64,000 nucleotides of DNA from Escherichia phage SR02. Below, piece after piece: positions 36,716-53,171 of this stretch. The translations under genes and the position numbers were made by a program. Below the pieces are notes generated by a model. The model had not been told where the DNA came from and made no database searches. It was given only the letters and a program-made list of their open reading frames with translations. Position 1 is the stretch's first letter. Each line of letters starts with the position of its first letter. The stretch is from the sequence record OQ870566.1, one strand, 5' to 3'.

Positions 36716-36717
36716 GT

Positions 36718-37156: not shown

Positions 37157-37158
37157 CA

Positions 37159-38355
37159 ATGACTACTCGTATCCGTGTTCTTCCTTATGGCCCTTCTGAT
37201 TCAGTTCGTGAACTTACTTCTGCAATTAACACTAAGATTCAGGAACTTCGACTAAATGCTAACGTAATGTCTCTGGTATCAGAAGGCTCTCGTTATCGTT
37301 CTCGTGTTGGTGATATTGTTGTCAACTACGGAAACCGTCGATACAACGACTCTTTCTTTGGTGGCGCAACTGTGTTGAACTCTGTGGTTGCCTTGAACCG
37401 AGCGGCTAACAAAGTTGCAGCATTTAACGCACTGCGTTTAGCTGAAGTCAAAACTGTTGAATACACCGTCGATCGTGAAGTAGCTCAGAACTGGAACCGG
37501 AATGAAATTGTTTATGAACGTGGAACCTTAACTGGTCACTCTGGAGAAGGTATTACTGTTCGTCTTACGCGAGAAGGTGTTGCGGATGCTCCTCTATACA
37601 CCAAAGGCATCCAAGGCCCACGTCGTGAATGGCGTGTTCATGTGTTCGAAGGTGTTATCACTTACGTTCAGAAGAAGATTCGTCGTAATGGTTATCGTGA
37701 ACTGGAAAGTTATCGTGAAGATATTCGTAACCATCACACTGGTTGGGTTTATTCTAACTCCTTCACTGAAGCGCCTCCTGATCAAGTTCTTATTCAAGCT
37801 CACAAAGCTGTATCTGCTCTGGGTTTGAACTTCGGTGCTGTTGACCTGATTAGCAAAGGTACTAACGCATGGGTTCTGGAAGTTAATACAGCTCCGGGCC
37901 TGACTGGCACAACTCTGGAAACCTACACTCACAACATCGTTGAGTTTGTTAAGAGTTTCTCTGGTGTTGATCCTGACTACCGCGTTGCTTACGAACTGCC
38001 TGTTGAAGAAGTGGAAGAAGAATTTGCTGAATCGGCAGATGACGAAAACTTTGCATTGGCAGCTGAGCCAGTTGCTGAAGAGTCTTCGGAGCCTGTTCCT
38101 GAAACAATGCAAGTTGAAGAACAAGGGTTAGAGATCAACCCGGTAACCCGTCGTAATCTGCGTCGTGGTTATTATATCGCTAACATCAAGCATCCTGAAA
38201 ACGGTTCGACTGTAGCAAGTAACGTGATCTTGTTCTTCTGTGGTCGTAACTTCTACCGCTCTGGATGGAACGCACCAATTAGTGATCGTCAGCTTGGTCG
38301 TGTGTTGCAGATTAATAGCCTTACCCTGAATGATGGCACTGTTGTAAACTACTAA
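37159..38355 (+). CDS. ATP-grasp family ligase
   Basis: GAVDLISKGTNAWVLEVNTAPGLTG ATP-grasp signature; acidic C-terminal tail. Confidence 0.75.
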   Translation: MTTRIRVLPYGPSDSVRELTSAINTKIQELRLNANVMSLVSEGSRYRSRVGDIVVNYGNRRYNDSFFGGATVLNSVVALNRAANKVAAFNALRLAEVKTVEYTVDREVAQNWNRNEIVYERGTLTGHSGEGITVRLTREGVADAPLYTKGIQGPRREWRVHVFEGVITYVQKKIRRNGYRELESYREDIRNHHTGWVYSNSFTEAPPDQVLIQAHKAVSALGLNFGAVDLISKGTNAWVLEVNTAPGLTGTTLETYTHNIVEFVKSFSGVDPDYRVAYELPVEEVEEEFAESADDENFALAAEPVAEESSEPVPETMQVEEQGLEINPVTRRNLRRGYYIANIKHPENGSTVASNVILFFCGRNFYRSGWNAPISDRQLGRVLQINSLTLNDGTVVNY

Positions 38356-38361
38356 GGATAT

Positions 38362-38610
38362 ATGGATATGTTTTCATTGGAAGATCTAGTACAAAATGGA
38401 ATGATGGAACAAAAAGAGCCTCTGATTGTAGGCTCTCGTAAAGAGTTGCGTAAATTGTGTGAGGAGTGGGGTATTACTAATCAGCGAATGATTGGTAATC
38501 AATTCTCTGCAATTGTAACTTTCCTAAAACGTGGTGATAAGTATTCTATGGAATGTGTAGAACGTATCATCGCTGAAGCACAACAAGATAAAGGAGTAAC
38601 ATATCTGTGA
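38362..38610 (+). CDS. hypothetical protein (82 aa)
   Basis: ORF in island. Confidence 0.45.
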   Translation: MDMFSLEDLVQNGMMEQKEPLIVGSRKELRKLCEEWGITNQRMIGNQFSAIVTFLKRGDKYSMECVERIIAEAQQDKGVTYL

Positions 38611-38813
38611 ATAAGTATAAAGTCCTGTTTAAAGATACCAATGCAGCTGGCGAAATGCGAGCAATGGATATTGACGCTGAATACTTCCGAAGTGAGCTTG
38701 ATCAGATAGTATTCTATGAGCGCGGTAGTCGACCTGCTAATGAATCAGAAGTTATTGCTTCATTCGGTAAAGAAGCAATCTGCGGTGTAATCAAAATCTT
38801 TATTACAGAGTAA
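38607..38813 (+). CDS. hypothetical protein (68 aa)
   Basis: GTG start overlapping previous stop. Confidence 0.35.
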   Translation: MNKYKVLFKDTNAAGEMRAMDIDAEYFRSELDQIVFYERGSRPANESEVIASFGKEAICGVIKIFITE

Positions 38814-38882
38814 TCTGCTCTAGTCTCTTCGAAAGAGGAGGCTAGTTCGGATAAACTAAACAAACCAACAAAGGTATAGATA

Positions 38883-39302
38883 ATGTCAGAAGTAATTTAC
38901 GTAGCAACTTATGGTTCTCTTCGTCGTGGTCAAGCTAACTATCTAGTTAATGACCGAGCTGGTGCTAAGTCAATTGGTGAAGGTTGGACTGAAGACAACT
39001 TTGATCTGTTCCGCTATGGTGGTTCCTACTTCCCAAGCATCTCTCTCGCACACAGCAATAACAATAAGCCTGTTCGTGTAGAAGTGTTTGCTACTGACAA
39101 AGCAGGTCTGGAAGGTCCATACGATCGTCTGGAAGGTTACAATAAACGTAGCCCTGAAGATAGCTTCTATCAACGAACTCAGATTGCCGTTAAGCTGGAC
39201 TCAGGTGAAACTGTTATCGCTTGGATTTATCACATTGACGAAGAACAAGATGTTCTGGTTGAATCTGGCGACTGGTCAGAGTATCTGAAAAGTGAATCTT
39301 GA
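38883..39302 (+). CDS. gamma-glutamyl cyclotransferase-like (AIG2/GGCT family) protein
   Basis: N-terminal YVATYGSLRRGQANY matches the AIG2 YGSL/TL motif; 139 aa size typical. Confidence 0.6.
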   Translation: MSEVIYVATYGSLRRGQANYLVNDRAGAKSIGEGWTEDNFDLFRYGGSYFPSISLAHSNNNKPVRVEVFATDKAGLEGPYDRLEGYNKRSPEDSFYQRTQIAVKLDSGETVIAWIYHIDEEQDVLVESGDWSEYLKSES

Positions 39303-39495
39303 GAAAAGACAGGCTCTTCGGAGACTTGAAGCCAAATACTTAATGCTACGGTGCAAAATCAACCGACATGAACGTTTCGTTGAAGCTGCACAATCTAAAA
39401 ACTTTGAATCATCAGTGGAGATGTTCAAGACCCAACTTTCTTTTTATAGGAAAGAACAGGAACAAGTGTGGGATGAAATTCGTTCGTTCTACTAA
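39292..39495 (+). CDS. hypothetical protein (67 aa)
   Basis: GTG start overlapping previous gene. Confidence 0.35.
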   Translation: MNLEKRQALRRLEAKYLMLRCKINRHERFVEAAQSKNFESSVEMFKTQLSFYRKEQEQVWDEIRSFY

Positions 39496-39521
39496 GCTCA
39501 AGGATTCCAAGGAGGAAGAGC

Positions 39522-41312
39522 ATGTCAAAGATCATTTTGGGAGACACAGGTTGTAAGGAATGTATCTCTCATGGTCGTGATAAAACCCACAACCACATGA
39601 TTCTCTTCCGTAACGAAGAGACAGGTGAGGAGTGGGGAAGTTGTAACCGTTGTGGGAATTACGAAGTGTTCGAAAAGGGCACTACACCTACTCCAAACGA
39701 GAAGAAAGAGTTGTCCCCTGAAGAGTTAAGAGAAGTCTTAGATGATTGCTTAGAGCTTCCTCAGGGTGAACTCACTCGACGTTTAATCCCTAAAGCCGTA
39801 TCAGAGCGTTTTGAGTGTCGCATTGGTCTAAGTCAGACTGATGGTCAGACTCCAGACAGCTACTTCTTTCCTCGTGAACGTGATGGAAACATTGTCGGTT
39901 ATGAGGTTAAGCTGCTTGACAGTAAGAAGTTCTATTACGTTGGCAGTGTGAAAGAAGCAGATTTATTTGGTATGGCACAGGCTCAGCGTGGTGATGTGTA
40001 CAACAAGAAGCTCTTCATTTTTGAAGACCCGCTATCTTGTATGTCTGGTTTCCATGTCCTTACAGCTTTTACAAATGCAACAAACATTAAACCAGCATGT
40101 GTTTCTTTACCGTTCGGTGCAGGTTCAATCTCTTCTGTGTTGTCTCGTAATCGAGACTTCGTAAATGGTTTTGAGGAGGTTGTGCTCTGCATGGACAACG
40201 ATGATGCAGGTGAGATAGCTTTAACAAAAGGTCGTTCTTTATTCCCTCATGTTAAATTTGCTCGTATCCCTAAAGGAACTTTCCCATACAACGGTGTGGA
40301 GAAAGAGATTAAGGATGCGAATGACATGCTTCTGTCTGGTCGTGGTCAAGAGTTATTCAACATTCTCAAGTACTCAGCAAAGCGGGAATCTCCTGCTGGA
40401 GCTGTAACAATCTTTGATTGCCTTGATGATGCTCTGAAGAAAGCGGAGTGGGGTATCCCATATCCGTGGAAGACTCTGAATGAGATGACCTTCGGTATTC
40501 GATGGGGAGAGGTGGTAGCAATCGGTGGTGGTGTAGGTAGTGGTAAAACATTAATTGCTCACGAACTTGTTGCTCATCTGTGCTTAGAGCATGGTTTTAA
40601 TGGAGGTGGCTTCTTCTTGGAAGAGAAGGTAGGCATGTCTGTTAAGAATATCGCTGGTAAGTCAGCATCAATCCCTTTCCACCGACCTGATGTTGAATAT
40701 GACGAGGAGGATTTGCGTAATGAAGCACTTCGTTATGCAGACAAATTCTTCTTGTATGACAACTTCGGGCAGAATGAATGGGAAGACATTAAACAGTGTA
40801 TCCGTTTCTGGGTAGTTGAAAACCAGTGTAAGTTCATCATCCTTGATAACATTACCGCTCTGGTATCTCATTTAACACCTTCAGAAATTAACACCGAAAT
40901 TAGTAAGATTGCTTCCGAGCTTGCTGGTATGTGTAAAGAGTTAGACTTTACCGCTTTCGTACTATCTCACCTTAATGCTCCGGCAGGTGGTGCTCCTCAC
41001 GAAGAAGGTGGACAGGTACGTGAAGTCCAGTTCACTGGCTCTCGTTCTCTTATGCGTTGGTGTCAGTGTATCATTGGCTTTGAGCGTGACAAGCAAGCTG
41101 ATGGCTTAGCTAAGAACCTCTCAGTCATTCGATTACTGAAAGAACGTAATTACGGTCAGACGGGTGTCTGCTATACTAAGTATATCAGTGAAACCGGTAG
41201 ACTTGTAGAAAGGGAAGACTTTGAAGTTGATGAAGATAATCCATTCGTTTTAACTAACGGAGAGGATGCAGCTTCTCTCGTCAACCAAGCAGATGGAGCT
41301 TCACCGTGGTAA
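39522..41312 (+). CDS. DNA primase/helicase (T7 gp4-like)
   Basis: AGGAGG RBS; N-terminal zinc ribbon CKECISHG...CNRCGNY; central primase-like region; Walker [10 protein letters not shown] and IILDN Walker B. Confidence 0.9.
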
Positions 41313-41860
41313 AGAAAAAGAAAGTGTTTGCATTCGATATCGAGAGTAATGCACTGTACGATGACATAACTAAAGTGTGGTGTATTTACATCTTCGATGT
41401 TGAAACTGGTGAAAGGTGGGGCTATCGGCCTCACCAAATTGAAGATGGGATTCGTAAACTTACAGAAGCTGATGTGCTCGTAGGTCATAATATTATTGAC
41501 TTCGACCTTTGTGCTCTGAAGAAGATGTATCCCAATCTGATCGACTATCGTTTTAACGTCTTTGACACTTTATGTCTTAGTCGATATCTTAAACCTGACC
41601 GTATTGGTGACAGTCCTGAGTATCCGAAAGGCGACCCTAGACATGGCCCAAGAGGTCATGGCTTGAAGCAATGGGGTGAGTTCTTAGAGGAACTTAAAGG
41701 TGACTACGGTGAGCAAGAGGAAGCATGGGATGCTTTCACTGAGGATATGTTTACTTATTGTGAACAGGACGTTAACTTAACTGTTAAGGTTTATCTTTTC
41801 TTGTGTGAACTCACGGGATTTGACCCTTACGACCCACCTTCATTATATTGGAAAATGTAA
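41306..41860 (+). CDS. 3'-5' exonuclease (DnaQ-like), T7 DNA polymerase exonuclease-domain homolog encoded separately
   Basis: Exo [11 protein letters not shown], Exo [11 protein letters not shown], Exo [16 protein letters not shown]; by recalled T7 gp5 sequence aligns to its first ~190 residues; likely start is the GTG at 41324. Confidence 0.8.
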
Positions 41861-41861
41861 A

Positions 41862-43160
41862 ATGATTGTTATCCCGATTAACCGAATTGAAGATAAGGTT
41901 GCTCAACAACCTGATATCACTGTTGGTCGTCACTTTATTGAACAGTTGATTAACAACAACTTGATTCCAGATTGTATTTGTCCCATCATCACTGGTGGGG
42001 CTGTTCGTGATGCTGTTCTTAATAATAGAGCACCTCATGACATTGATATCTTTATTGTCAGAGGACAGGCACCAAGAACCCAAAATACTTTTATCCATCA
42101 TGACCAGTGGCAAGATCTCGGACGAGAGGTTGAAAGTAATGTGAAAGAGTGGCTCGAGTCTCAAGATATTGAGTACTCTTCCCTTCTTGCTGAATCTACA
42201 GATGAGCCGTATACTGGGACTTCTCAACTAACATTCACTGATATTATTGAGTTTCAGTGGAATGGGGTTCGTATCCAATTCATGTTTAACTATCCTACTT
42301 CTATTGAAGAGGTATTGGATAATTTTCCTATGATGTGTCGTGGTGCGATGACTCTTGACAAGCTGTTCATGACCCCCCATGGATATTTGTCTATGACCTC
42401 TCCTTGTCCAGTAGTTGTCTCTGGTCGTGAAATCAAGTATGTTCACAAGAAGTGGCCTAATTCACAGGTATTAAGATTCTCCTCTCCATCTGTTGCATAC
42501 CAATATATGGCACAATCTCGATATCTTCCTACACCTCAACCAGTTAATCATCTGGTCAACGAACGAGGTCAGGTTGCTCTTATTGAGGATACAACAAGTG
42601 CTCAGTATTGTGTTGACCGTGACATGAGTCGATTCTTTGGAATCCCTTATGAAGAGATTCAGTTAATGTCAAGCACACATGGCTCTAGCCAGATTCATGC
42701 GTATTGGTCTGAAGGGTTGACAAATTTAACAACTAACACGGGTGGTGATCTACTTGGTCGAGAAGAGGAACCTAACCGACACAATGCAATTGAAGGGGTG
42801 TTTGTAGCCCCTGCAATGCGTAGAGCACAAGAGTCACGAAGAGTAAGCCCTACTCGTAGAACATCTTTTGAAGAAGCTCTTGGTATTACAAGAGATTCTA
42901 TGGAGAGATGGATGGCTAGCACCTCTCGTGGTCGACCAAATGGTTTGACTGTCAGCCGTCATCAGTTCTCTGGTCAGGGCTTTGCTGTTGGCGATCTTGA
43001 TATTCCTTCTCATGGTGAGCTGGCTGAGACTGTCAGTCGCAGTCTCGCTGATCGCTTTGTTGCTAACAACCCTGAAGTATTAGAACCTCAAACCCGTACA
43101 GTTCGGTTTGCTGATGAAGCGGGTCGTGGAATCTCTTTTGACGTAGAAACAAATAACTAA
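41862..43160 (+). CDS. nucleotidyltransferase with CCA-adding-enzyme / poly(A) polymerase-like head domain
   Basis: IITGGAVRDAVLNNRAPHDIDIFIV matches the class II tRNA-NT/PAP head motif GGAVRD...D.D; remaining ~330 aa unassigned. Confidence 0.6.
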   Translation: MIVIPINRIEDKVAQQPDITVGRHFIEQLINNNLIPDCICPIITGGAVRDAVLNNRAPHDIDIFIVRGQAPRTQNTFIHHDQWQDLGREVESNVKEWLESQDIEYSSLLAESTDEPYTGTSQLTFTDIIEFQWNGVRIQFMFNYPTSIEEVLDNFPMMCRGAMTLDKLFMTPHGYLSMTSPCPVVVSGREIKYVHKKWPNSQVLRFSSPSVAYQYMAQSRYLPTPQPVNHLVNERGQVALIEDTTSAQYCVDRDMSRFFGIPYEEIQLMSSTHGSSQIHAYWSEGLTNLTTNTGGDLLGREEEPNRHNAIEGVFVAPAMRRAQESRRVSPTRRTSFEEALGITRDSMERWMASTSRGRPNGLTVSRHQFSGQGFAVGDLDIPSHGELAETVSRSLADRFVANNPEVLEPQTRTVRFADEAGRGISFDVETNN

Positions 43161-43169
43161 GGAATAAGA

Positions 43170-43724
43170 ATGAGTTTACTAGGAAGCCCAGAGTTACATA
43201 AACTAATTGATGATGGTGTTATTGATGCACCACACTCAGCTGTTAACTCCTCCAGCATTGACGTCCGTATTGGAGATCGTGTTCTGATGGAAGGTGCAGC
43301 TAATGGGGTTGTTGATATCTCTGCTAAAGAATCTCCTAACTTCAACGAGGTTATGATTCCAGAGGAAGGGTTGGTGATCAAACCGGGTGAGTGTTTCTTG
43401 GCTCATACAGTGGAGACATTCAATCTTCCAGACAACATTAGCTGTGACTTCATGCTACGATCTACTGTCGGTCGTTGCTTCTTAGAGCACATGCACGCTG
43501 GTCATGCAGATGGCGGTTGGCATGGCAGTCAGTTAACTATGGAATTCAAGAATGTCCTACAACATCACTCTCTTCTGATCAAGCCGGGGATGCGTATTGG
43601 TCAAATGGAGTTCTTTAAACACTCCTCATCCGAAGAGGACAGTTACGCAACGAAAGGTTCATATAATAACCAACAAGGGCCGACAAAAGCTTTTGGTGGA
43701 ACAAACCATGCTGATATGCTATGA
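43170..43724 (+). CDS. dcd: dCTP deaminase family protein
   Basis: SIDVRIGD, PGECFLAHTVE, LRSTVGR and MEFKN motifs in the order found in Dcd/dUTPase-fold enzymes. Confidence 0.75.
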   Translation: MSLLGSPELHKLIDDGVIDAPHSAVNSSSIDVRIGDRVLMEGAANGVVDISAKESPNFNEVMIPEEGLVIKPGECFLAHTVETFNLPDNISCDFMLRSTVGRCFLEHMHAGHADGGWHGSQLTMEFKNVLQHHSLLIKPGMRIGQMEFFKHSSSEEDSYATKGSYNNQQGPTKAFGGTNHADML

Positions 43725-44217
43725 TGAAGTAGTTGACCTCTTTAATATAGACATGTCAGCACCTTCAGGGCTTTCTTGGAAAAGGAAGCCTAGTAAGTTT
43801 GCTAATGATATAGTAGGTAAACCTGCTGGTAAGCTCACAAAAGATGGATATTATCAAATTCCCTTAGGAGGAGTTCGTGTCCATAATCATAGGATTCTTT
43901 TTGTTCTTTATACTGGTGAGGATTTATCGGATGAATATCAAATAGATCATGCTGACGGTAATAGAGAAAACCTAGAAGAAACTAACCTGAGAAAATGCTC
44001 TCACTCTGAGAATAGTCAGAATGCTAAGACAAGGGTTGATAACAAACTAGGAATCAAGAATGTCTACCGAGAGAAAGGTGGAACGTTCTGTGTATCTGTT
44101 CAAAAAGACGGTAAACGTGAGTCTGTATATGGGGTGAAAACTCTTGAAGAGGCTAAGATTTTGGCTAAGTCTATGAGAAGTAGACTTCATCTCTCCTTTA
44201 ATGTGGATGAAAGATAA
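43708..44217 (+). CDS. HNH homing endonuclease with AP2-like DNA-binding domain
   Basis: HNHRILFVLYTGEDLSDEYQIDHADGNRENLEETNLR HNH core; C-terminal AP2-like GKRESVYGVKTLEEAKILA; overlaps dcd 3' end. Confidence 0.8.
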   Translation: MLICYDEVVDLFNIDMSAPSGLSWKRKPSKFANDIVGKPAGKLTKDGYYQIPLGGVRVHNHRILFVLYTGEDLSDEYQIDHADGNRENLEETNLRKCSHSENSQNAKTRVDNKLGIKNVYREKGGTFCVSVQKDGKRESVYGVKTLEEAKILAKSMRSRLHLSFNVDER

Positions 44218-44412
44218 ATGAAAAAGTTTTGGTTAGTGAAGATTAAGTGGTCATCTGGTTGTACGACTATGACCGCACTACCTACTCGTCAACAGGCTCG
44301 AGATTTTAAAAAGTCTATGTTCCATGGAGATTTAACTAAGAGCGTTAGTATCCATAAGGCCAAGGAGTATTCTTCTGGTCGTGTTTATATCAGCGGAAAG
44401 GTACATTACTAA
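44218..44412 (+). CDS. small MKKxW-family protein (64 aa)
   Basis: Paralogs at 44412 and 45830 share MKK.W start and terminal Y. Confidence 0.45.
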   Translation: MKKFWLVKIKWSSGCTTMTALPTRQQARDFKKSMFHGDLTKSVSIHKAKEYSSGRVYISGKVHY

Positions 44413-44621
44413 TGAAAAAGATGTGGGCTATTCATGTTGTTTGGGATCTTGAGCAACACATGAGAAAAGATAACATCAAATTGTTTGACACTCGCAAAGA
44501 GGCTCGTATTGCTAAGAAACAGTTGAAGACTCTGGGCACAATAGTAAAAAGCGCTGACATACATCGCTGGTATGAAGACCCTAACACTGGTTCTTTTATG
44601 TCTAAAGTAATTTACTACTGA
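44412..44621 (+). CDS. small MKKxW-family protein (69 aa)
   Basis: Paralog of 44218 and 45830. Confidence 0.45.
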   Translation: MKKMWAIHVVWDLEQHMRKDNIKLFDTRKEARIAKKQLKTLGTIVKSADIHRWYEDPNTGSFMSKVIYY

Positions 44622-44693
44622 TTGGTAGTAGATATGATAACTCTCAAATGTATATAGAGTACAATAAGAATTTGTATTTTACAGGAGAGAGTT

Positions 44694-45023
44694 ATGTTAG
44701 ATTTGAGTAAAGTGGCCCCGCCCACTGAAGAGATTACAAAATCCAAGGTGATGCAACAGTTTTATCATCGTGATATGCTTGGTCGCTTTATCAAGAATCG
44801 TGATGTTGTTGCTTGGTCTATCGGTAATCAGGGATATCTGTTGAAGGTTCTTCAGGTCACAGGTTCAACTGCTAAGCGAGTTAAGGTGTATGACCCTGAA
44901 ATGGGGCGTTCTAAGTCAGTAGACCCACAGAACTGCATCGTAATTACCCAGCAGGTAATGGATAACATTGCACGTAACGTTGCTAACTCAGTTGAACTTG
45001 ATGGAGAAAACCCAAATGCATAA
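44694..45023 (+). CDS. hypothetical protein (109 aa)
   Basis: ORF with AGGAGAGAG RBS. Confidence 0.5.
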   Translation: MLDLSKVAPPTEEITKSKVMQQFYHRDMLGRFIKNRDVVAWSIGNQGYLLKVLQVTGSTAKRVKVYDPEMGRSKSVDPQNCIVITQQVMDNIARNVANSVELDGENPNA

Positions 45024-45579
45024 GAATGTCTTTGATTTACCTGAGATTGGTCGTGTCGACTACAATATGTTAGACCGGTCTGAGCTTTCAATCTCTCGCC
45101 TTGAAACAATGCAAGGCATGATTAGTGGAAACAGCCTAGAACACATCCTGAGCTGCTTACAAGCTAACATGGAACTCTTGCATATCAAAGCTAAAAACTA
45201 CCACTGGAACGTCTCTGGTGCAGGATTTCAGGGTGTTCATGGTATGTTTGATGAGCTTGAAGATTACGCACGACAAGTAGGAGATCGTATTGCTGAACGT
45301 ATGCGTTACCACTGTGTTAAAGTGGATGCTACAGCAGCCAATTATCTTTCTCATGCTTGGTTCTCAGAGGGTAATGCTGACCTAGACATGGACGGTATGC
45401 TCTCTGATATGTGCATGACCTTGATGTGTATTATTGAGAAGATGGATGAGTTTGATGGTGATTTAGCCACTTATCCAGTTGATCAGAGTATGCTTCAAGA
45501 AATTAATGAAGGTCTTGGCAAGTATTGCTACTTCGTCAAGAGCAACATGTCCCACTCAAGTGGTGATGTGTCTTATTAA
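45016..45579 (+). CDS. Dps/ferritin-like protein
   Basis: KAKNYHWNVSGAGFQGVHGMFDELEDYARQVGDRIAERM matches the Dps ferroxidase-site helix pattern (recalled E. coli Dps). Confidence 0.6.
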   Translation: MHKNVFDLPEIGRVDYNMLDRSELSISRLETMQGMISGNSLEHILSCLQANMELLHIKAKNYHWNVSGAGFQGVHGMFDELEDYARQVGDRIAERMRYHCVKVDATAANYLSHAWFSEGNADLDMDGMLSDMCMTLMCIIEKMDEFDGDLATYPVDQSMLQEINEGLGKYCYFVKSNMSHSSGDVSY

Positions 45580-45640
45580 AAACCTCCGCCCTGTCTCCTA
45601 ATCCGAGGTGGGGCGAACTCATTTATAAGGATATAAATAT

Positions 45641-45820
45641 ATGTTATCAGCAATCGTATGGGGTATTTGGGCTATCTTTATTGGTGGTGGTATCTATTGG
45701 GCTTCTGGCAAGCTTATTGAAGAAACTCCTGACAAGAAAGGTGAGATTCAAACAGCATCAACCATCATGGTTATCGTAGCTGTTGTTATCCCATTCCTGC
45801 TTCACCTCCTGACTGCATAA
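45641..45820 (+). CDS. small membrane protein (59 aa)
   Basis: Two hydrophobic helices. Confidence 0.35.
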   Translation: MLSAIVWGIWAIFIGGGIYWASGKLIEETPDKKGEIQTASTIMVIVAVVIPFLLHLLTA

Positions 45821-45829
45821 GGTTCTTAA

Positions 45830-46030
45830 ATGAAAAAATGGTCCGTAGTTTGTGTTGACCCTTCAGGTGCTATTCTATGGGACTTGACTGGTGATACAAG
45901 GAAAGAGATGCGTATTCTTAAAAAGATGCTCAAAGAAGATAACCCTCAAGGGGATGTTTTTCATTTAGTAAAAACAGAAATGTCCAAAAGTGGGAAGGTC
46001 CAACCTGACTTGAGTAAAATTTACTATTAA
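45830..46030 (+). CDS. small MKKxW-family protein (66 aa)
   Basis: Paralog of 44218 and 44412. Confidence 0.45.
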   Translation: MKKWSVVCVDPSGAILWDLTGDTRKEMRILKKMLKEDNPQGDVFHLVKTEMSKSGKVQPDLSKIYY

Positions 46031-46038
46031 GGAACCGA

Positions 46039-46314
46039 ATGTCTAAAGTAATTAAGTTTTATAGTGATCAGTGCGCTCCATGTAAAGCAATGGCTCCTAC
46101 CTTTGAGAAGGTTGTTAAGGAGTTCGATGTAGAAGTGGAAGAGATTAACATCCTTGAAGGTGATGGTCGTGAACAAGCTGTTAAGTATGGTGTACGAAGC
46201 ATCCCTGCTTTTGTTGTACCTGACCGTAACAGTGGTGCACACTACAGCCTCTCCGGTATGCAGACTGAAGCAAACCTGAAAGCATTTTTGGACACAGCCC
46301 TGAGAAATAAGTAA
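46039..46314 (+). CDS. thioredoxin-like protein
   Basis: Active-site CAPCK in WCGPCK position; downstream VRSIPAF cis-Pro motif; 91 aa. Confidence 0.75.
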   Translation: MSKVIKFYSDQCAPCKAMAPTFEKVVKEFDVEVEEINILEGDGREQAVKYGVRSIPAFVVPDRNSGAHYSLSGMQTEANLKAFLDTALRNK

Positions 46315-46329
46315 TAAGGATATTCACGG

Positions 46330-46986
46330 ATGAATGAACAACTACAAGCAACATTAATCGAAGCTATGGGAAGTGATCGTAGCGTAGTAAACGCAGCTCG
46401 AGTTTCCTTTGGCGTAACCCGTGAAGGTGATTTAAATGAACGTGATGAACGTCTCATCAACTTCCTCGCAAGAGAGAAGCATGTCACGCCTTTCAGGCAC
46501 CCGCAAGTCAGTTTCCGATGCAAAGCACCTATCGCAATTGCGAGACAGTTGGGCAAGCATCAGGTTGGATTCTCGTGGAACGAAATGTCCCGGCGGTATA
46601 AAGATGGAGCAGTTGAAGTCTTCATCCCTAAAGAGATTTTTGCGAGACCTTCGGACCTCCATGCAGGTTCAGGGATTCAACTCATCGACGGAGAGCGAGC
46701 TGAAGCATTAATGCTGATTAACGATGCATATGAAGCTTCTCTAGCAGCATATGACAAGTTGATTGAATTTATTGCACCAGAGCAAGCTCGATTTGTTCTT
46801 CCTCAGGGGATGATCACTGAGTGGGTATGGACTGGTTCTTTATATGGCTGGTTTGAGTTATGTCGTCAGCGACTCTCCTCTCACGCTCAATATGAAGTTC
46901 GAGTGTTTGCTAAATCTCTGGATGAAGAGATGGCTAAACTTTACCCAATCTCATGGGCAGCTCTGAAGAAAACTTTGGAGAATTAA
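46330..46986 (+). CDS. thyX: ThyX-like (flavin-dependent thymidylate synthase family) protein with variant signature
   Basis: HVTPFRHPQVSFRCKAPIAIARQLGKHQVGFSWNEMSRRY aligns to the recalled ThyX motif region, but RHR is replaced by KHQ. Confidence 0.6.
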   Translation: MNEQLQATLIEAMGSDRSVVNAARVSFGVTREGDLNERDERLINFLAREKHVTPFRHPQVSFRCKAPIAIARQLGKHQVGFSWNEMSRRYKDGAVEVFIPKEIFARPSDLHAGSGIQLIDGERAEALMLINDAYEASLAAYDKLIEFIAPEQARFVLPQGMITEWVWTGSLYGWFELCRQRLSSHAQYEVRVFAKSLDEEMAKLYPISWAALKKTLEN

Positions 46987-47174
46987 TGTTGGAAGAAGAT
47001 GACGATGTGTTCTGCACCAAGTGTGGGATGACAGTTGATGATGCATATGACCCAAGTGTAGAAATTTGCCCTTGTTGTGGAGTATGTGAATATTGCTGTT
47101 CCCATAACTCAGAGGATTAGCAGGAATTTCTGATGAAAATAAAACATATTACAGATATTCAGGAAGCATTCTAA

Positions 47175-47366
47175 ATGCCTCCTCGAAGAGAGAAGGATAA
47201 GATTAAAAAGCTTATTCAAGTTTATGGTCATACATCTAAAGATGATATAGACTATATGCCTTCTACTTTCGTAGAATGTGGGATTGCTAGCGGTTTCACA
47301 TTCGACCATAAAGTGTTTCAGCAATTCGTTGACCACTGGAGAAAAGATGGAAAAGAAGATCTGTAG
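47175..47366 (+). CDS. hypothetical protein (63 aa)
   Basis: ORF in early array. Confidence 0.35.
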   Translation: MPPRREKDKIKKLIQVYGHTSKDDIDYMPSTFVECGIASGFTFDHKVFQQFVDHWRKDGKEDL

Positions 47367-47532
47367 CTTCTGTAAGAAAGAGAAGCCTATCGCCAACTTT
47401 AAGCCCAATCCTGTGACTGGTCTGAATCATGTGATGTGTCACTCTTGTAGGATATATCTTGAAACAAAGCACACCATTAACAGGTTGCACTATTATCACC
47501 CAACAACATTCAAATTTAAGGTTGTGAAATGA
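47347..47532 (+). CDS. small zinc-ribbon protein (61 aa)
   Basis: CSFCKKE...CHSCR Cys pairs; start moved to internal ATG. Confidence 0.35.
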   Translation: MEKKICSFCKKEKPIANFKPNPVTGLNHVMCHSCRIYLETKHTINRLHYYHPTTFKFKVVK

Positions 47533-47852
47533 TTGACAGTAATACATTTAGGACTTCAAATGGAAGTGAAATAAGTCCTGCTGAAGTAATTAATCGGCAT
47601 AGAAGGCAATTGATCATCCATTCCTATTTGTATTACTGGTTGGATGACCCTATCTGGTCTGATGATAAATGGCAACAAGTTGCTAATGATTTGGTTGAGT
47701 TGCAAGCCTTATATCCAGAGCCTACCGGAGTCTTTGACAATGAGTTCAAAGATTGGGATGGTTCTACAGGAATGCACCTCCCACATAACGAAGCTGTTGC
47801 TTGTATGGCGACAGCTGTTTACAGACTTCATAAAGGGGTTAACTTCGCATGA
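47529..47852 (+). CDS. hypothetical protein resembling the N-terminal Ia domain of NAD-dependent DNA ligase
   Basis: HSYLYYWLDDPIWSDDKWQQVANDLVELQALYPEP resembles LigA Ia HEYLYH..D.P.I.D.EYD.L...L..LE...PEL; tentative. Confidence 0.4.
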   Translation: MIDSNTFRTSNGSEISPAEVINRHRRQLIIHSYLYYWLDDPIWSDDKWQQVANDLVELQALYPEPTGVFDNEFKDWDGSTGMHLPHNEAVACMATAVYRLHKGVNFA

Positions 47853-48049
47853 GCGTAGTTTATGTTCTAGAAAGATATGCTGAAGATCACAACAGTATTG
47901 TTGCCATATTTAAATATGCCCCGGATGTTGAGGATATTTTGAATGTGACTCACTTAACTGATGTTGATAAAATCAAAGACCTCATCAGGAATGACAATGC
48001 CCACATAGGTGACTCCCTGTGGTCTCTTACTGAATGGACATTGTGGTGA
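47849..48049 (+). CDS. hypothetical protein (66 aa)
   Basis: ORF in array. Confidence 0.4.
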   Translation: MSVVYVLERYAEDHNSIVAIFKYAPDVEDILNVTHLTDVDKIKDLIRNDNAHIGDSLWSLTEWTLW

Positions 48050-48231
48050 AGTGCTCTAAATGTGAAGGAACAAACCTTCATTTAAGTAACAAGGTTATCA
48101 GAGAGCTTGCCAAAGGCTCTCCAACCAAAGGGAAGAACAAACGATTTACTAATGTCAGGGTTTATACAGCAATCTGTAAAGACTGCTTAACTACTGAGTG
48201 TCATTACGAAGAAATTGGAGAGCGTAAATGA
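48034..48231 (+). CDS. small zinc-ribbon protein (65 aa)
   Basis: CSKCEG...CKDCLTTEC. Confidence 0.4.
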   Translation: MDIVVKCSKCEGTNLHLSNKVIRELAKGSPTKGKNKRFTNVRVYTAICKDCLTTECHYEEIGERK

Positions 48232-48965
48232 GTCGTCGTCAATCACGGAAAGAATCACGGAAAGATCTTCGTCGGGAAGCACTTGTTACTCGTAAGGGTA
48301 AGCGAGAGTATGAAGAGGTGGTTTTAGCAAAGCCTGTAGTCCCTCAGAACCAGTTTCAGTCTGAGCTACTCAATGCTATTAAGACTAAACAAGTTGTGTT
48401 CACAGACGCTCCTGCGGGCTGTGGTAAGACCTTTGTAATCACTTCCACAGTTATTGATGCACTGAAGAGTGGTAAGATTCAGAAGATCATTCTGAGTCGC
48501 CCTTCGGTAGGCATGGGTAATTCTCTTGGGTTACTTCCGGGAGGAATGCGTGAGAAGTTTGAACCATACCTGATGCCTATCATTGATGTTATTACTCAGC
48601 GATACGGTAAGGGATTCTATGAATGCCAAATCGGAAATGGTAACATTGAGTTTGTACCTCTGGAATATCTCCGTGGTCGTTCTTTCAATGATGCTATTGT
48701 TATTGTTGATGAGTTCCAGAACACAACTAAAGATGAAGCCTTCTCCATCATGACTCGATTGGGAGAAACCTCTCAGCTGTTCTGTATGGGTGATACAAAC
48801 CAGCATGATATGCGTGGTCGTGAGAGTGGTCTTACTTGGGCTACTAACTTTATTGATGAACACGATCTGTATGAGTTCGCTGAGATTGTAGATGGTGAAT
48901 CAGATGATATTGTTCGTTCTGGTTTCTGTAAGGCGATTGTTAAAGCAATGGAAAAGAAAGCTTAA
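48228..48965 (+). CDS. phoH: PhoH-like ATPase
   Basis: Walker A DAPAGCGKTF; IVIVDEFQN Walker B-like; 245 aa. Confidence 0.75.
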   Translation: MSRRQSRKESRKDLRREALVTRKGKREYEEVVLAKPVVPQNQFQSELLNAIKTKQVVFTDAPAGCGKTFVITSTVIDALKSGKIQKIILSRPSVGMGNSLGLLPGGMREKFEPYLMPIIDVITQRYGKGFYECQIGNGNIEFVPLEYLRGRSFNDAIVIVDEFQNTTKDEAFSIMTRLGETSQLFCMGDTNQHDMRGRESGLTWATNFIDEHDLYEFAEIVDGESDDIVRSGFCKAIVKAMEKKA

Positions 48966-48976
48966 ACAGTAACTTA

Positions 48977-48985
48977 TAATGTATA
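48977..48985 (+). promoter_or_regulatory. candidate phage-sigma promoter element TAATGTATA
   Basis: Exact 9-mer 37 nt upstream of the strongly RBS-equipped ORF at 49022. Confidence 0.4.
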
Positions 48986-49021
48986 CTCCTTAGTGTACAC
49001 TGATATATTAAGGAGTTTTAA

Positions 49022-49339
49022 ATGGCAGACCATGTAGGAAAGAGAGATTATGCACAAGAAAGACGTACCGCAATTGCCCGTGGTGAAACAGGCGTTGGGA
49101 GCAAGAGCGGAGATGCTCAGCGCCACCGTGCACGTCGCATCGTTGAAAAGCGCGATGGAAAAGCTGCTGTCAGAGGTAAAGATGTTGGACACAAACGAGC
49201 TGTCAAGTCTGGAGGCTCTAATGCGTCAAGCAACTTACGTGTTGAATCAGTCAGCTCAAACCGTTCAAACGGCGGCAAAAGTGGTGATCGAGCTGGAAAA
49301 GCAAACGGAGCTAGGAAGGGGGCGTTGAGTGGTTCTTGA
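49022..49339 (+). CDS. basic Gly/Ser/Arg-rich protein (105 aa)
   Basis: AAGGAG RBS 7 nt upstream; preferred over the overlapping 49050 ORF. Confidence 0.5.
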   Translation: MADHVGKRDYAQERRTAIARGETGVGSKSGDAQRHRARRIVEKRDGKAAVRGKDVGHKRAVKSGGSNASSNLRVESVSSNRSNGGKSGDRAGKANGARKGALSGS

Positions 49340-49679
49340 TGACACCCTATCTTATGATGCGGTCACAGGTAACCTATACTACACAAAATCTCCAAGCAAA
49401 GGAGTGATGTGGAACAAAAGCCATCCCGGAAAGATAGCTGGATGTAGGATATCGAAAGGCTATATCGGTGTGTATTTCCAAGGAAGACAATGGAGAGCGC
49501 ACCGGCTTATAGCTACACACTTTATACCAAACCCTAACAATTATCCAGAAGTCAACCACATAAATGGGGTAAAAGACGATAATCGACTGGAGAATCTTGA
49601 ATGGGTATCCGCTTCTGAAAACATACAACACTCCTTTGATACAGGGTTGAATAAAGGACATATTCGTGACAATAACTGA
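49329..49679 (+). CDS. HNH homing endonuclease
   Basis: KGYIGVYFQGRQWRAHRLIATHFIPNPNNYPEVNHINGVKDDNRLENLEWVSASEN HNH_3-type core. Confidence 0.8.
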   Translation: MVLDDTLSYDAVTGNLYYTKSPSKGVMWNKSHPGKIAGCRISKGYIGVYFQGRQWRAHRLIATHFIPNPNNYPEVNHINGVKDDNRLENLEWVSASENIQHSFDTGLNKGHIRDNN

Positions 49680-49820
49680 ATGACCAAGCTATCTTCTGAG
49701 GATGTTGTAAAGATTAAACAGATGTATGTGAAGGGTTCTAGGGATTTTGGCTCTAGAGGTCTTGGTAAGTTGTTTGGCGTGAGTCATACAGCAATACTTC
49801 ATGCTTTAAAGGAGCTTTAA
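49680..49820 (+). CDS. small HTH protein (46 aa), possibly a detached DNA-binding module of the upstream HNH endonuclease
   Basis: ATG overlaps the HNH stop (TGAATG); GSRGLGKLFGVSHTAILHALK helix-turn-helix. Confidence 0.35.
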   Translation: MTKLSSEDVVKIKQMYVKGSRDFGSRGLGKLFGVSHTAILHALKEL

Positions 49821-49838
49821 GCTCATAAAGAGGTTATA

Positions 49839-50132
49839 GTGTCAGCAGAAACAAAAAGATGTACAATTCATACTTATTGTAAATTCTGTAAAGCAGAGGG
49901 TGTAAAAAGAGTTGCAACTTTAATGACCAAGTATTCTCCAAGTAGAGGATACAGGGACCACTATAAGCACTACTCTTGTAGTGATCACTCCCATCTATTA
50001 GAAGATACAGACCCGAATAGAACAAGGAGAGAGCATAACATTGACCTGAGAGCTACTCTCAAGGAAATGAAAAACAACTCTCGAAACAACCATTACACTG
50101 AAGCTGACTATCAAACTTGGCTTCGTCTCTAG
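49839..50132 (+). CDS. hypothetical Cys/His-rich protein (97 aa)
   Basis: ORF followed by terminator. Confidence 0.45.
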   Translation: MSAETKRCTIHTYCKFCKAEGVKRVATLMTKYSPSRGYRDHYKHYSCSDHSHLLEDTDPNRTRREHNIDLRATLKEMKNNSRNNHYTEADYQTWLRL

Positions 50133-50137
50133 AACAA

Positions 50138-50169
50138 AGGCTGCCTAATCAGGTGGCCTTTTCTTTTAT
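50138..50169 (+). terminator. rho-independent terminator
   Basis: Hairpin AGGCUGCC-UAAUCA-GGUGGCCU followed by UUUUCUUUU. Confidence 0.6.
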
Positions 50170-50201
50170 ATAAACCAAATTAAACTTCTTAGGTAATAAA
50201 T

Positions 50202-50456
50202 ATGTCTATTGTAAAAATCGTAAATATCATTGATGTAACTCGTACCGGTAAAACTATCAGTTGGAAATTCACCAATAAGCATAGAGGTTCAGAGAACATC
50301 ATTCGTTATATGATTCAACAAAACCCAAATACAGCTCGCACTAACGTACTCCTTCGCGGAGCTGATGGAAAATTTATCTCTTATAAGAATAAGAACGTAG
50401 AAAAATCTTTCCGTGTTGCAGTAGAAAACCTCATCCCATTCCCTAAAGGAGTTTAA
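50202..50456 (+). CDS. hypothetical protein (84 aa), paralog of 50458
   Basis: Shares ...TARTNVLLRGADGKFISYKN...PFPKG with the next ORF. Confidence 0.5.
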   Translation: MSIVKIVNIIDVTRTGKTISWKFTNKHRGSENIIRYMIQQNPNTARTNVLLRGADGKFISYKNKNVEKSFRVAVENLIPFPKGV

Positions 50457-50457
50457 T

Positions 50458-50742
50458 ATGAATAAGTTAGCTATGGTTCAGATTCGAGACACATACCCCA
50501 ATCGCCCAGAGCAGAAACCACGTACTTGGTCTTATCTATTGGCTGAGAGTAAGACTATTGATAGTTTCTCTGTAGAGATTGACACTATCCCAAAAAGCAT
50601 CACGCTGCTTCCACATAAAACAGCAAGAACTCATGTGATGTTACGAGATAGCAAAGGTAAATTTATCTCTTATCGAGATGCTCGAATCAACAGTGAAATT
50701 AAAGCTGCTATGGAATCTTTAATGCCATTCCCAAAAGGTTAA
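50458..50742 (+). CDS. hypothetical protein (94 aa), paralog of 50202
   Basis: Tandem duplicate (KTARTHVMLRDSKGKFISYRD...PFPKG). Confidence 0.5.
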   Translation: MNKLAMVQIRDTYPNRPEQKPRTWSYLLAESKTIDSFSVEIDTIPKSITLLPHKTARTHVMLRDSKGKFISYRDARINSEIKAAMESLMPFPKG

Positions 50743-50745
50743 ACA

Positions 50746-50904
50746 ATGAAAGAGTATATTTACGTTGGTCAGCGCTGGTATGGTGATGAATGGGAAGGTG
50801 GATACTGCGTTGTGAAAGCTTTTAAGTCTGAAGAAGATGCCAAGGCATGGGTCTTAAAAGATGACGTTGGCGAGAGAACTTACATTGAAGTGGAGGTGGA
50901 ATAG
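50746..50904 (+). CDS. small protein (52 aa)
   Basis: ATG with RBS; no motif. Confidence 0.3.
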   Translation: MKEYIYVGQRWYGDEWEGGYCVVKAFKSEEDAKAWVLKDDVGERTYIEVEVE

Positions 50905-50905
50905 G

Positions 50906-51310
50906 ATGCCATTACCAGCTAGACACCAAAACCGTTTCCTAGTTCTCAAGTGGGATGATATTGAAATGAATCTCACTGAACATGAACTGGACTTGTTCCA
51001 TGAACTTTTATCAGAAATTCGATCTGGTATCCCTGAACGTCAGTATGTAGTTATCAGTGATAAACACCCTCAAGAGTTTGAAGAAGCTTGGGGCATGAAG
51101 CTGGCCTACATTCAGAGAGCTATTAGAGAAAGAGAGGAAGTTGCCCATCAGAGGGTCATGGCCCATCTGATCAGAGAGCAGCCTCTTGAAGTTAGGTCTT
51201 CACCCACACCAACTCCGTGGAGAGTTGAAGGTAACACTATCCGAGTATCTCCTAGTGACCTAGATGCAATAACTGACAACCAAGCATTCACAGATTTACT
51301 TTACCAATAA
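50906..51310 (+). CDS. hypothetical protein (134 aa)
   Basis: GGAGGTGG RBS. Confidence 0.5.
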   Translation: MPLPARHQNRFLVLKWDDIEMNLTEHELDLFHELLSEIRSGIPERQYVVISDKHPQEFEEAWGMKLAYIQRAIREREEVAHQRVMAHLIREQPLEVRSSPTPTPWRVEGNTIRVSPSDLDAITDNQAFTDLLYQ

Positions 51311-51326
51311 TTTAAAGGAGTATAAA

Positions 51327-53171
51327 GTGAGCAACCCGGACGCTCTCCCATTTTTGACAGAGATGACTGTCGCTGATATAATCTCTAAGCAAGCAAAGCA
51401 CGGAGTGAGTTTCAACCGAAGAAATGCTCGGTGGTATGTTCACCTCCTTAAAGAGATTATTGTTAATATTGACAGAGAGTTGATTCCTCTCTTACCTAAG
51501 ATGAGATTAGATGGCTCTACTTATATGAAGCCATTTAAGAAGTCTGGAGCTTTACAGAAGTGGCCCCAAGCCTATTGCGATAGGGTTGGCCTTAAGAGAG
51601 AAGACATTGGTGGAGCATTCACCTGTGTCGAATACGTAGACTTTGACCCATCGAAAGATGCACGAGTTAAAGAAGCCCTTATGGACGAGGGTTTTCTTCC
51701 TCCAGAGTTTAATGTATCAAAGAAACCTTGGAATACTTTTGAAATCAAGAAAGATATGAAAAAGTATGGAACATACCAAGCGTGGTATTCAGCTTGGATG
51801 CGAGGTAATGCTAAGCAGAAGCAGACAGCCGAGATGGTTGACGCTGATATTAGGAAGTTCTTAGAAAAGCATTTTAGGTTTAAAACTAAGAACTACATGA
51901 AGGCTTATGTATTTGGTTTAGGTTTAAACCCTAACCGACGTAGACCTATCACTTTTGATGAGATTAAGATAGCACTAGCTACCTCAAACAAGTGGCCTAC
52001 AGCTCCTACAAACCTCGAAGAGACTCTTGAAGAAGGGTTAGGGGGTGAGCTAGGGAGTGTCGGAAGTTTGCTTAAGAGACGCGTTGTAGCGGCTCACAGG
52101 TTAGGTCTTATTAGTGGACTCATAGCAAAGGAGCGCGAAGATGGTAAACTTTCGGCAGAAGCTAACAGCTGTGCTACGCCGACTTTTCGATTCAAACATC
52201 GTATCGTGGTTAATATTCCCTCCCGTGGTTTGTTTGGTCACGAGTGTCGCAGTTTGTTTGAATCTGACTATAACTCAGATGATGATCACTCTCGTCCTTT
52301 CGTTATTACTAACGTTGTTCCTGATGGTTGTTATATACGAAAAGGTACTAACGTAATTTATGAGAAAGGTAAGCCGGGGAAGAAAGACAAACCTGTAGGT
52401 GCTTACAAATATTACATACCCGCTGGTAAAGAAGTATTCTTAGGGTATGATGGTTCTGGATTAGAATTGCGTATGCTCGCACACTACCTCATTAAAGAGT
52501 GTAGGGACATGCTTGCTGAAGCAATAGAAGAGAATAACCCAGCTAAGAAAGCTCTGGCAGAACGTGGTTTAGCTTCTGCTATTATGTATCGTGATATTCT
52601 CCTTGAAGGTGATATCCACTCCCACAACCAGAAACTTGCTGGTCTTCCTACTCGCGACAACGCTAAGACGTTTATCTACGCATTCAACTATGGTGCTGGT
52701 GATGCTAAGCTTGGTTCAATTGTAGGTGGTGGGGCTGACGAAGGTTCAGTGATGCGAGCACGTTTCTTGGCAGAGAACCCATGTATTGCAATCCTCATTG
52801 ATCGTATGACAGAGAAAGCTGCTCAAGGATACTTGATTGGTGTTGATGGTCGTAAGATTACAATGAGACGGGATGCCACTGGTAAGGTTATGGTTCATAA
52901 AGCACTTAACACTCTCCTGCAATGTGCTGGTGCTGTTGTTATGAAATATGCTATGATGTTCCTTAACAAGTGGATTGAGAAAGATAAGGTTCGTTGTGCT
53001 AAGGTAATTGATATGCATGATGAAGGTCAATTCTCAGTGAACCGTAATGATGTACAGAAGCTAAAAGAGCACACCGAGCTTTGTGTTAAGAAGGCTGGTG
53101 AGTACTTGAAGATGGAATGCCCTCTGGCTTCTGATTGTCAGATTGGACTTAACTGGATGCACACACACTAA
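51327..53171 (+). CDS. DNA polymerase, family A polymerase domain (T7 gp5-like), lacking its own exonuclease domain
   Basis: Motif A YDGSGLELRMLAHY, motif B RDNAKTFIYAFNYGAGDAKLG, motif C IDMHDEGQF; close match to recalled T7 DNAP palm and fingers. Confidence 0.9.
   Translation: MSNPDALPFLTEMTVADIISKQAKHGVSFNRRNARWYVHLLKEIIVNIDRELIPLLPKMRLDGSTYMKPFKKSGALQKWPQAYCDRVGLKREDIGGAFTCVEYVDFDPSKDARVKEALMDEGFLPPEFNVSKKPWNTFEIKKDMKKYGTYQAWYSAWMRGNAKQKQTAEMVDADIRKFLEKHFRFKTKNYMKAYVFGLGLNPNRRRPITFDEIKIALATSNKWPTAPTNLEETLEEGLGGELGSVGSLLKRRVVAAHRLGLISGLIAKEREDGKLSAEANSCATPTFRFKHRIVVNIPSRGLFGHECRSLFESDYNSDDDHSRPFVITNVVPDGCYIRKGTNVIYEKGKPGKKDKPVGAYKYYIPAGKEVFLGYDGSGLELRMLAHYLIKECRDMLAEAIEENNPAKKALAERGLASAIMYRDILLEGDIHSHNQKLAGLPTRDNAKTFIYAFNYGAGDAKLGSIVGGGADEGSVMRARFLAENPCIAILIDRMTEKAAQGYLIGVDGRKITMRRDATGKVMVHKALNTLLQCAGAVVMKYAMMFLNKWIEKDKVRCAKVIDMHDEGQFSVNRNDVQKLKEHTELCVKKAGEYLKMECPLASDCQIGLNWMHTH

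Follow-up and report, generated by a model that had tools for sequence, protein, structure and literature searches.

The 64,000-nucleotide stretch of Escherichia phage SR02 DNA analyzed here (sequence record OQ870566.1; hereafter the window) encodes a DNA polymerase of the T7 gp5 type in two separate genes. One specifies a stand-alone 3'-5' exonuclease. The other, which begins 9,466 bp beyond the exonuclease stop codon, specifies a polymerase lacking an exonuclease domain, and ~25 genes lie between the two. A preliminary description, made from the letters of the sequence, had proposed this split with a spacing of ~9.5 kb, and both open reading frames (ORFs) were found where it had placed them. 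The two halves are intact: each has its own Shine–Dalgarno element, invariant catalytic residues, and T7 gp5 as its top fold match. These observations favor the reading that the window carries the replication module of a Kuravirus phage, in which an ancestral T7 gp5-type gene was very probably cut once, long ago, at a domain linker.

Two halves of a T7-type DNA polymerase

The exonuclease ORF encodes 184 amino acids (aa) and starts with GTG, with GGAG nine bases upstream. Its product matched the Pfam family DNA_pol_A_exo1 (E=7.6e-8) and the PHROG family 'DNA polymerase exonuclease subunit' (E=5e-77), and BLASTP aligned its residues 11–180 with residues 5–196 of T7 gp5 at 32% identity (E=1e-16). 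All residues that define the DEDDy class (PF01612) were present, namely DxE in Exo I, NxxxD in Exo II and YxxxD in Exo III. Across 49 stand-alone homologs, D11 and E13 (Exo I), H61, N62 and D67 (Exo II), and Y151 and D155 (Exo III) were invariant. An AlphaFold2 model of the protein had a predicted local distance difference test (pLDDT) score of 93.6, and its best 27 matches in the PDB were all the exonuclease domain of T7 gp5.

The stand-alone exonucleases also share a conserved C-terminal tail, GFDPxNPP, which in the window covers aa 168–184 (positions 41806–41857). This tail aligns with the start of the interdomain linker of T7 gp5 (YFPPEIDF) and could be a docking peptide.

The polymerase ORF likewise starts with GTG, 5 nt after AAGGAG. 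Its product matched Pfam DNA_pol_A (PF00476, E=2e-23), and its best PDB match by sequence was T7 gp5 (E=2.7e-31), compared with only 1e-6 for the Klenow fragment. Motif residues D375, E380 and R382 (motif A), R443, K447, Y451 and G456 (motif B), and H564, D565 and E566 (motif C) were invariant in 90 homologs. The structural model (pLDDT 93.1) gave T7 gp5 as its top 27 Foldseek matches (E=6.7e-26, TM 0.57–0.59). No 3'-5' exonuclease domain was found in this polypeptide, which starts at about residue 205 of gp5; that domain is in the separate upstream ORF.

In these alignments, the exonuclease reaches gp5 residue ~196 and the polymerase begins at ~205. Because one ORF ends and the other begins so near each other on gp5, the cut falls in the interdomain linker, exactly at the boundary of the exonuclease and polymerase domains, with nothing missing or duplicated. 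The preliminary description had equated the exonuclease ORF with the first ~190 residues of gp5, citing DIE, HN..D.D and Y...D motifs, and had read motifs A, B and C but no exonuclease motifs in the polymerase ORF. The first assignment is borne out by the BLASTP alignment and the invariance among 49 homologs, and the second agrees with the Pfam match, the T7 gp5 alignment and the invariance among 90 homologs.

Likeness to the T7 gp5/thioredoxin system extends beyond the best sequence and fold matches of both halves to a gp4-like helicase tail and an insertion at the thioredoxin-binding site. The system differs from T7 in having two polypeptides rather than one, ~50 aa rather than 76 at the thioredoxin-binding site, an extra basic insertion of ~90 aa at the thumb tip, two insertions flanking motif A, and an atypical thioredoxin of its own.

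Age and spread of the split

The 11.9-kb stretch that holds both genes is 92–94% identical in DNA sequence to EcoN5, ES17 and SU10 over 84–95% of the query. Megablast with this stretch matched 99 phage records, 44 of them across at least 80% of its length. Taxonomy was read for SU10 and EcoN5 among these records, and both belong to Kuravirus, subfamily Gordonclarkvirinae. Nucleotide identity and gene order together indicate that the window comes from a Kuravirus (phiEco32/SU10-like) coliphage. Kuraviruses are phiEco32-like podophages with prolate heads (C3 morphotype). The phiEco32/SU10 pair has the same genes in the same order, and the window polymerase is 98.4% identical to that of SU10. In RefSeq, the label of SU10 gp075 is 'DNA polymerase exonuclease subunit' and that of gp051 is 'DNA polymerase', and the intervening genes match those of the window; for phiEco32, the UniProt entries EXO74_BPE32 and DPOL_BPE32 are cited in the annotation of Privateer. 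The gap differs from that of SU10 in accessory content alone, the window having two HNH genes that SU10 is without.

Each of the 51 database homologs of the exonuclease was stand-alone (105–212 aa), and none was fused to a polymerase. The closest polymerase homologs of at least 480 aa all lacked an exonuclease domain (95 of 95). Within the best 120 homologs, the first fused polymerases (P0107, P0109 and P0113–P0118) appeared at ~42–45% identity to the window protein. A neighbor-joining tree was built from these top 120 database matches, using 480 well-aligned columns and T7 gp5 as the root. The 96 exonuclease-less polymerases, the window's included, formed one clade, and 8 fused proteins were its sister. 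Such a topology indicates a single ancient fission that was then inherited.

Gene order points the same way. The sequence helicase, exonuclease, polymerase recurred in Kuravirus, in Grimontviridae (GAP52, 7-11 and Privateer), in Lahexavirus, in a metagenome contig and in NV1, a LUZ24-like phage of Pseudomonas, and the two-gene layout was the same in every relative whose annotation was read. The gap between exonuclease and polymerase genes measured 2.0 kb in NV1, 5.6 kb in Privateer, 6.7 kb in 7-11, 8.5 kb in GAP52, 8.6 kb (8.63) in SU10, 9.5 kb (9.47) in the window, about 9.6 kb in LAh_6 and 10.5 kb in EcoN5. Because the order is constant and gap length alone varies among these relatives, the gap has grown by accretion. 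Genes for dCTP deaminase (dcd), a Dps-like protein, PhoH and the thymidylate synthase ThyX recur in the gap; an anaerobic ribonucleotide reductase is confined to some lineages, and so is thioredoxin.

The preliminary description had suggested that HNH homing endonucleases in the interval drove a rearrangement. This part did not hold. By annotation comparison, both HNH genes are sporadic, being present in EcoN5 and missing from SU10, and SU10 retains the split and the gene order without them. Nor is there an annotated HNH gene in the 2-kb gap of LUZ24-like NV1, where the split is found nevertheless. Because SU10 and NV1 have the split with no HNH gene in the gap, the split predates these mobile genes, which did not cause it, and we rejected HNH-driven rearrangement. 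The HNH genes may add to gap length.

More distant company is provided by the Pseudomonas podophages LUZ24, PaP3, tf and NV1, where the two genes go by 'DNA polymerase part I' and 'part II'. These phages share the gene order, the polymerase clade (39–41% identity over the full length) and the thumb-tip insertion, and LUZ24-type genomes also share upstream genes for an amidoligase, a glutamine amidotransferase and an ATP-grasp protein. They differ from the window in having a gap of ~2 kb without dcd, thioredoxin, ThyX or PhoH, and a polymerase of ~545 aa without the insertion that follows motif A.

In some relatives, the polymerase gene is itself interrupted. In Escherichia phage KarlSchell_Bas89 (positions 37838–40459 of its record), the tblastn match is divided in two and an 'endonuclease' is annotated within it. 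Several database proteins of ~450 aa (P0014–P0017, P0080–P0082, and P0098 of BUCT695) span just 72–74% of the polymerase query. This suggests insertion of an intron or a homing endonuclease, as in LUZ24, whose polymerase gene is reported to contain an intron.

Both the split and the idea that the phage thioredoxin aids processivity are already published. The tf phage paper (2012) noted that polymerase and 3'-exonuclease each have a gene of their own in every LUZ24-group phage and that this had been reported earlier for phiEco32. Taken together, accounts published in 2012 and 2023 record the split in the LUZ24 group, in phiEco32 and in all Kuravirus-like phages, with citation going back to 2008. 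The Privateer paper (2021) advanced the hypothesis that the phage thioredoxin couples with the T7-like polymerase for better processivity. We found no experimental test of the split polymerase or of the thioredoxin idea in the literature. Added by the present analysis are the position of the cut at the domain boundary, the single exonuclease-less clade, the thumb-tip insertion, the sporadic occurrence of the HNH genes and the distribution of the thioredoxin. The split can be viewed as nature's own test of how a T7-type replicase copes when proofreading and synthesis are separated.

Thumb insertions, thioredoxin and proposed assembly of the replicase

We aligned the window polymerase with the Klenow fragment and T7 gp5 and with relatives of the fused and of the split type. 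The thioredoxin-binding domain of T7 gp5 comprises ~76 aa in the thumb. The window polymerase does not have this domain in full but carries a shorter segment at the same site (Table 1). Counted between the columns of window residues D49 and F98, this span is 48 aa in the window, 39–50 aa in the split clade, 43–48 aa in non-T7 fused relatives and 71 aa in T7. The first 25 residues of the T7 domain are absent from the split clade and from the non-T7 fused relatives alike. Because split and non-T7 fused relatives all have a segment of similar length without those residues, the shortened form is general to this branch of T7-like polymerases, and not specific to phages that encode a thioredoxin.

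The tip of the thumb behaves differently. Here the window polymerase carries a basic helical insertion, which falls in the loop reading GIKPLKKTPGG/APSTSEEVLEEL in the Klenow fragment. The segment from P125 to R252 is 78–131 aa long in 96 of 96 exonuclease-less polymerases and 30–50 aa long in 9 of 9 fused proteins, T7 included, with no overlap between the two ranges; the insertion is also absent from the Klenow fragment. We met no mention of it in the published accounts consulted. The insertion may hold DNA, bind the acidic tail of the helicase, or dock the detached exonuclease. A bolder proposal, that this basic domain arose to compensate for the lost covalent link, as a processivity lid, exonuclease dock or helicase-tail site and, in enterobacterial C3 phages, maybe together with the phage thioredoxin bound at the adjacent segment that resembles a thioredoxin-binding domain, strikes us as rather unlikely. 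If true, the replicase would consist of at least three parts and be a variation on the T7 gp5–thioredoxin design.

The phage thioredoxin is a genuine thioredoxin-fold protein, 31% identical to E. coli TrxA. It has the CxxC motif and cis-proline of a thioredoxin: C12-x-P14-C15 and P56 were invariant in 13 sequences (down to 33% identity). Among the phage proteins, whose identity goes as low as 39%, these residues and the equivalent of E. coli G92 do not vary, and the equivalent of P76 is conserved. It does not have the features of the TrxA type (WCGPC, buried D26, and an N-terminal strand and helix). The active site in the window is QCAPC, and in all members of the phage family Lys replaces D26, Tyr replaces W28, and the N-terminal strand and helix of TrxA (its first ~20 residues) are missing. 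The G74 equivalent is Ser in the kuravirus-type proteins and Gln or Ala in GAP52 and Privateer; Gly is kept in 7-11.

Could this protein, as the preliminary description suggested, be a dedicated processivity subunit that binds the thumb in the manner of E. coli thioredoxin on T7 gp5? The polymerase is gp5-like and has ~50 aa where gp5 has its thioredoxin-binding domain, but the 25 residues with which the T7 domain begins are missing and a similar loop occurs in fused relatives. Distribution can also be read in two ways. By tblastn, thioredoxin homologs were confined to phages of Escherichia, Shigella, Salmonella, Cronobacter and Proteus and to a few uncultured or unnamed phage records, and the gene is present throughout the enterobacterial C3 (prolate) podophages with this polymerase, which speaks for such a role. 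Yet tblastn found no homolog in phages of Aeromonas, Vibrio, Pantoea or Pseudomonas with the same split polymerase, and the gaps of LAh_6, a 119-kb metagenome contig (L012) and NV1, which have the same polymerase and loop, contain no thioredoxin. A processivity role for a phage thioredoxin is thus not needed by sister lineages with the same polymerase. The position of the gene in between the two halves means little, because ~25 genes lie in the interval.

Residue conservation is similarly divided. The equivalents of P76 and G92 are kept, which speaks for a processivity role, but that of G74 is Ser in the window and the N-terminal strand and helix are lacking. The active-site region of E. coli thioredoxin also forms its gp5-binding surface. 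Both active-site cysteines of the phage protein are invariant, although T7 does not require the redox activity of thioredoxin, and this points to a redox role; conservation of CxPC fits retained redox activity.

As for a redox client, none is obvious in this phage. We discarded ribonucleotide reductase as the client in this genome, since tblastn found none in the window and none is annotated in SU10. This lack speaks for a role at the polymerase, but the gene adjoins dcd or PhoH in Grimontviridae and ThyX in the window, and relatives do encode ribonucleotide reductases (NrdAB in Privateer; NrdDG in GAP52, LAh_6 and contig L012). Moreover, the host already supplies TrxA. A literature search found no report on the trxA dependence of Gordonclarkvirinae phages, and one on residue-level contacts in the T7 thioredoxin-binding domain yielded nothing of use. 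The sole phage thioredoxin studied experimentally so far is that of Syn5, a T7-like cyanophage; it raised phage DNA replication, but from AlphaFold3 modeling a processivity role was judged unlikely. On balance, the simplest reading makes the phage thioredoxin a redox accessory to the cluster of nucleotide-metabolism genes. A processivity role is possible and not favored over a redox role, and we hold a dedicated processivity subunit to be improbable. The thumb-tip insertion that tracks the split and the patchy occurrence of thioredoxin among similar polymerases provide concrete targets for work on processivity and subunit assembly.

The upstream gene bears on how the exonuclease is used. The exonuclease start codon overlaps the stop codon of the primase/helicase gene in the sequence GTGGTAA (positions 41306–41312). 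This junction is identical in SU10 and EcoN5, and the overlap in GAP52 is 4 nt. Such an arrangement suggests that translation is coupled between helicase and exonuclease, rather than between exonuclease and polymerase. The last 35 residues of the primase/helicase (tail region 41208–41309) carry a net charge of -9 and end in Trp (...DGASPW). In GAP52, Privateer and 7-11, the helicase tails are acidic and end in Phe, as does that of T7 gp4 (...DTDF); all examined relatives have acidic tails, with an aromatic last residue in all but NV1. In T7, the acidic C-terminal tail of gp4 contacts the polymerase.

The following series of events would account for these features. An ancestral T7 gp5-type polymerase gene would have been cut once, at the exonuclease–polymerase linker. 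The exonuclease half would have stayed beside the gp4-like primase/helicase gene, the polymerase half would have come to lie downstream, and the intervening space would have filled with nucleotide-metabolism genes, small ORFs and occasional HNH homing endonucleases. The two subunits would reassemble non-covalently into a proofreading replicase within a T7-like replisome, much as alpha and epsilon do in Pol III, and the enlarged basic thumb tip might supply what the split removed or what T7 gets from thioredoxin. The E. coli Pol III core (alpha plus epsilon/DnaQ) is a functional analogy, in that a replicative polymerase and a DEDD exonuclease are separate polypeptides there too; Pol III alpha belongs to family C, of unrelated ancestry.

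Some points weigh against the scheme. Physical association of polymerase and exonuclease has been demonstrated for Pol III, whereas here we infer it. The tree is a simple neighbor-joining tree of the top 120 matches, so that a single origin is indicated, not proven. For the thumb insertion, the case for a role consists of co-occurrence, position and charge. Finally, it is with the helicase gene and not the polymerase gene that the exonuclease gene is coupled, so the exonuclease could have the helicase as its partner, or act alone.

This last point leads to a different view of the exonuclease, in which it is not a polymerase subunit at all. Acting independently or with the primase/helicase, it would serve in host DNA degradation, recombination or primer removal, and the polymerase would be left without dedicated proofreading. 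The overlap with the helicase gene and the distance of 2–10 kb from the polymerase gene would be natural on this account. But the exonuclease corresponds directly to the proofreading domain of T7 gp5 and retains every DEDDy residue, and its conserved C-terminal tail aligns with the beginning of the T7 interdomain linker. In addition, each phage record or contig examined that had an exonuclease-less polymerase gene also had one for a stand-alone exonuclease, and other tasks are covered by a 5'-3' exonuclease that the phage encodes separately. We therefore consider an exonuclease unconnected with the polymerase quite unlikely.

A sequencing or assembly artifact (a frameshift included), a pseudogene, or halves rejoined by a split intein or trans-splicing can be dismissed with near certainty. 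We found nothing in favor of any of these; an intron is reported for the polymerase gene of LUZ24, and that of some relatives holds an endonuclease. Against them, the layout recurs in dozens of independently sequenced phages, ~25 genes separate the two parts, and both have a ribosome-binding site of their own. The exonuclease ORF stops ~10 aa past its domain and the polymerase ORF starts at the boundary, which leaves no spare sequence for intein halves.

Gene content of the interval

We compiled the genes of the interval together with the helicase gene and the polymerase segments discussed above (Table 1). The preliminary description had listed a nucleotidyltransferase, dcd, two HNH endonucleases, a Dps-like gene, thioredoxin, ThyX and PhoH between the two halves, and Pfam or PHROG matches confirmed them all.

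Table 1. Genes and protein segments of the split-polymerase region, with positions in the window
Feature	Position	Strand	Evidence and remarks
T7 gp4-like bifunctional primase/helicase	39522..41312	+	BLASTP to T7 gp4, 28% identity, E=6e-40; Pfam DnaB_C, Toprim_2
Stand-alone DEDDy 3'-5' proofreading exonuclease subunit (predicted)	41306..41860	+	corresponds to T7 gp5 residues 1 to ~196
Nucleotidyltransferase, first gene of interval	41862..43160	+	weak match: Pfam PolyA_pol, E=4.9e-4 (CCA-adding/poly(A) polymerase head domain)
dCTP deaminase (dcd)	43170..43724	+	Pfam DCD, E=1.3e-31
Free-standing HNH homing endonuclease	43597/43708-44217	+	Pfam HNH_3, E=2.7e-9
Ferritin/Dps-like 'DNA-binding protein'	45016..45579	+	Pfam Ferritin, E=2.9e-7; PHROG 3636, E=3e-55
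Small phage thioredoxin, 91 aa	46039..46314	+	PF00085, E=2e-13; active site CAPC
Flavin-dependent thymidylate synthase (ThyX)	46330..46986	+	Pfam Thy1, E=1.8e-43
PhoH-like ATPase	48228..48965	+	Pfam PhoH, E=1.7e-56
Second HNH endonuclease ORF, 116 aa	49329..49679	+	PHROG 59, E=3e-28
Exonuclease-less family A DNA polymerase subunit, 614 aa	51327..53171	+	corresponds to T7 gp5 residues ~205 to 704
Thumb segment at site of T7 thioredoxin-binding domain	51483..51641 (aa 53-105)	+	~50 aa vs 76 in T7; strand-helix-strand, pLDDT >90
Thumb-tip insertion, helical, strongly basic	51717..51992 (aa 131-222)	+	five helices, pLDDT 88-97; 21 K/R vs 8 D/E
Beta-rich insertion just before motif A	52275..52424 (aa 317-366)	+	carried by most members of the split clade
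Helical insertion just after motif A	52497..52580 (aa 391-418)	+	kuravirus-type (~600 aa) polymerases; shorter in basal P0108; absent from LUZ24-type

Relatives share much of this content. The orthologs of the first interval gene in SU10 and EcoN5 also carry a nucleotidyltransferase annotation. In GAP52, Privateer, 7-11, LAh_6 and contig L012, dcd lies directly 3' of the exonuclease gene, and the Dps-like gene is kept in the interval of all relatives examined but NV1.

Upstream of the primase/helicase gene, a cluster encoding an amidoligase, a glutamine amidotransferase and an ATP-grasp protein is found in SU10 (gp082–gp086) and in NV1 (p18–p21). By synteny, the corresponding region of the window is 36000–39000, and an ATP-grasp gene is also upstream in GAP52 and 7-11. 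This indicates that the cluster is a deeply shared early-gene module.

Several small ORFs of the interval were noted as well. A 107-aa ORF (47529–47852) matched a PHROG family labeled 'DNA ligase' (E=7.6e-42), and SU10 gp059 has the same label; the label looks doubtful, the ORF being far below the length of a complete ligase. Three ORFs of 64–69 aa (44218–44412, 44412–44621 and 45830–46030) appear paralogous, with weak mutual similarity (E=2e-5 and 5e-4). Two tandem ORFs, 50202–50456 and 50458–50742 (84 and 94 aa), are 52% identical over 40 aa (E=3e-15).

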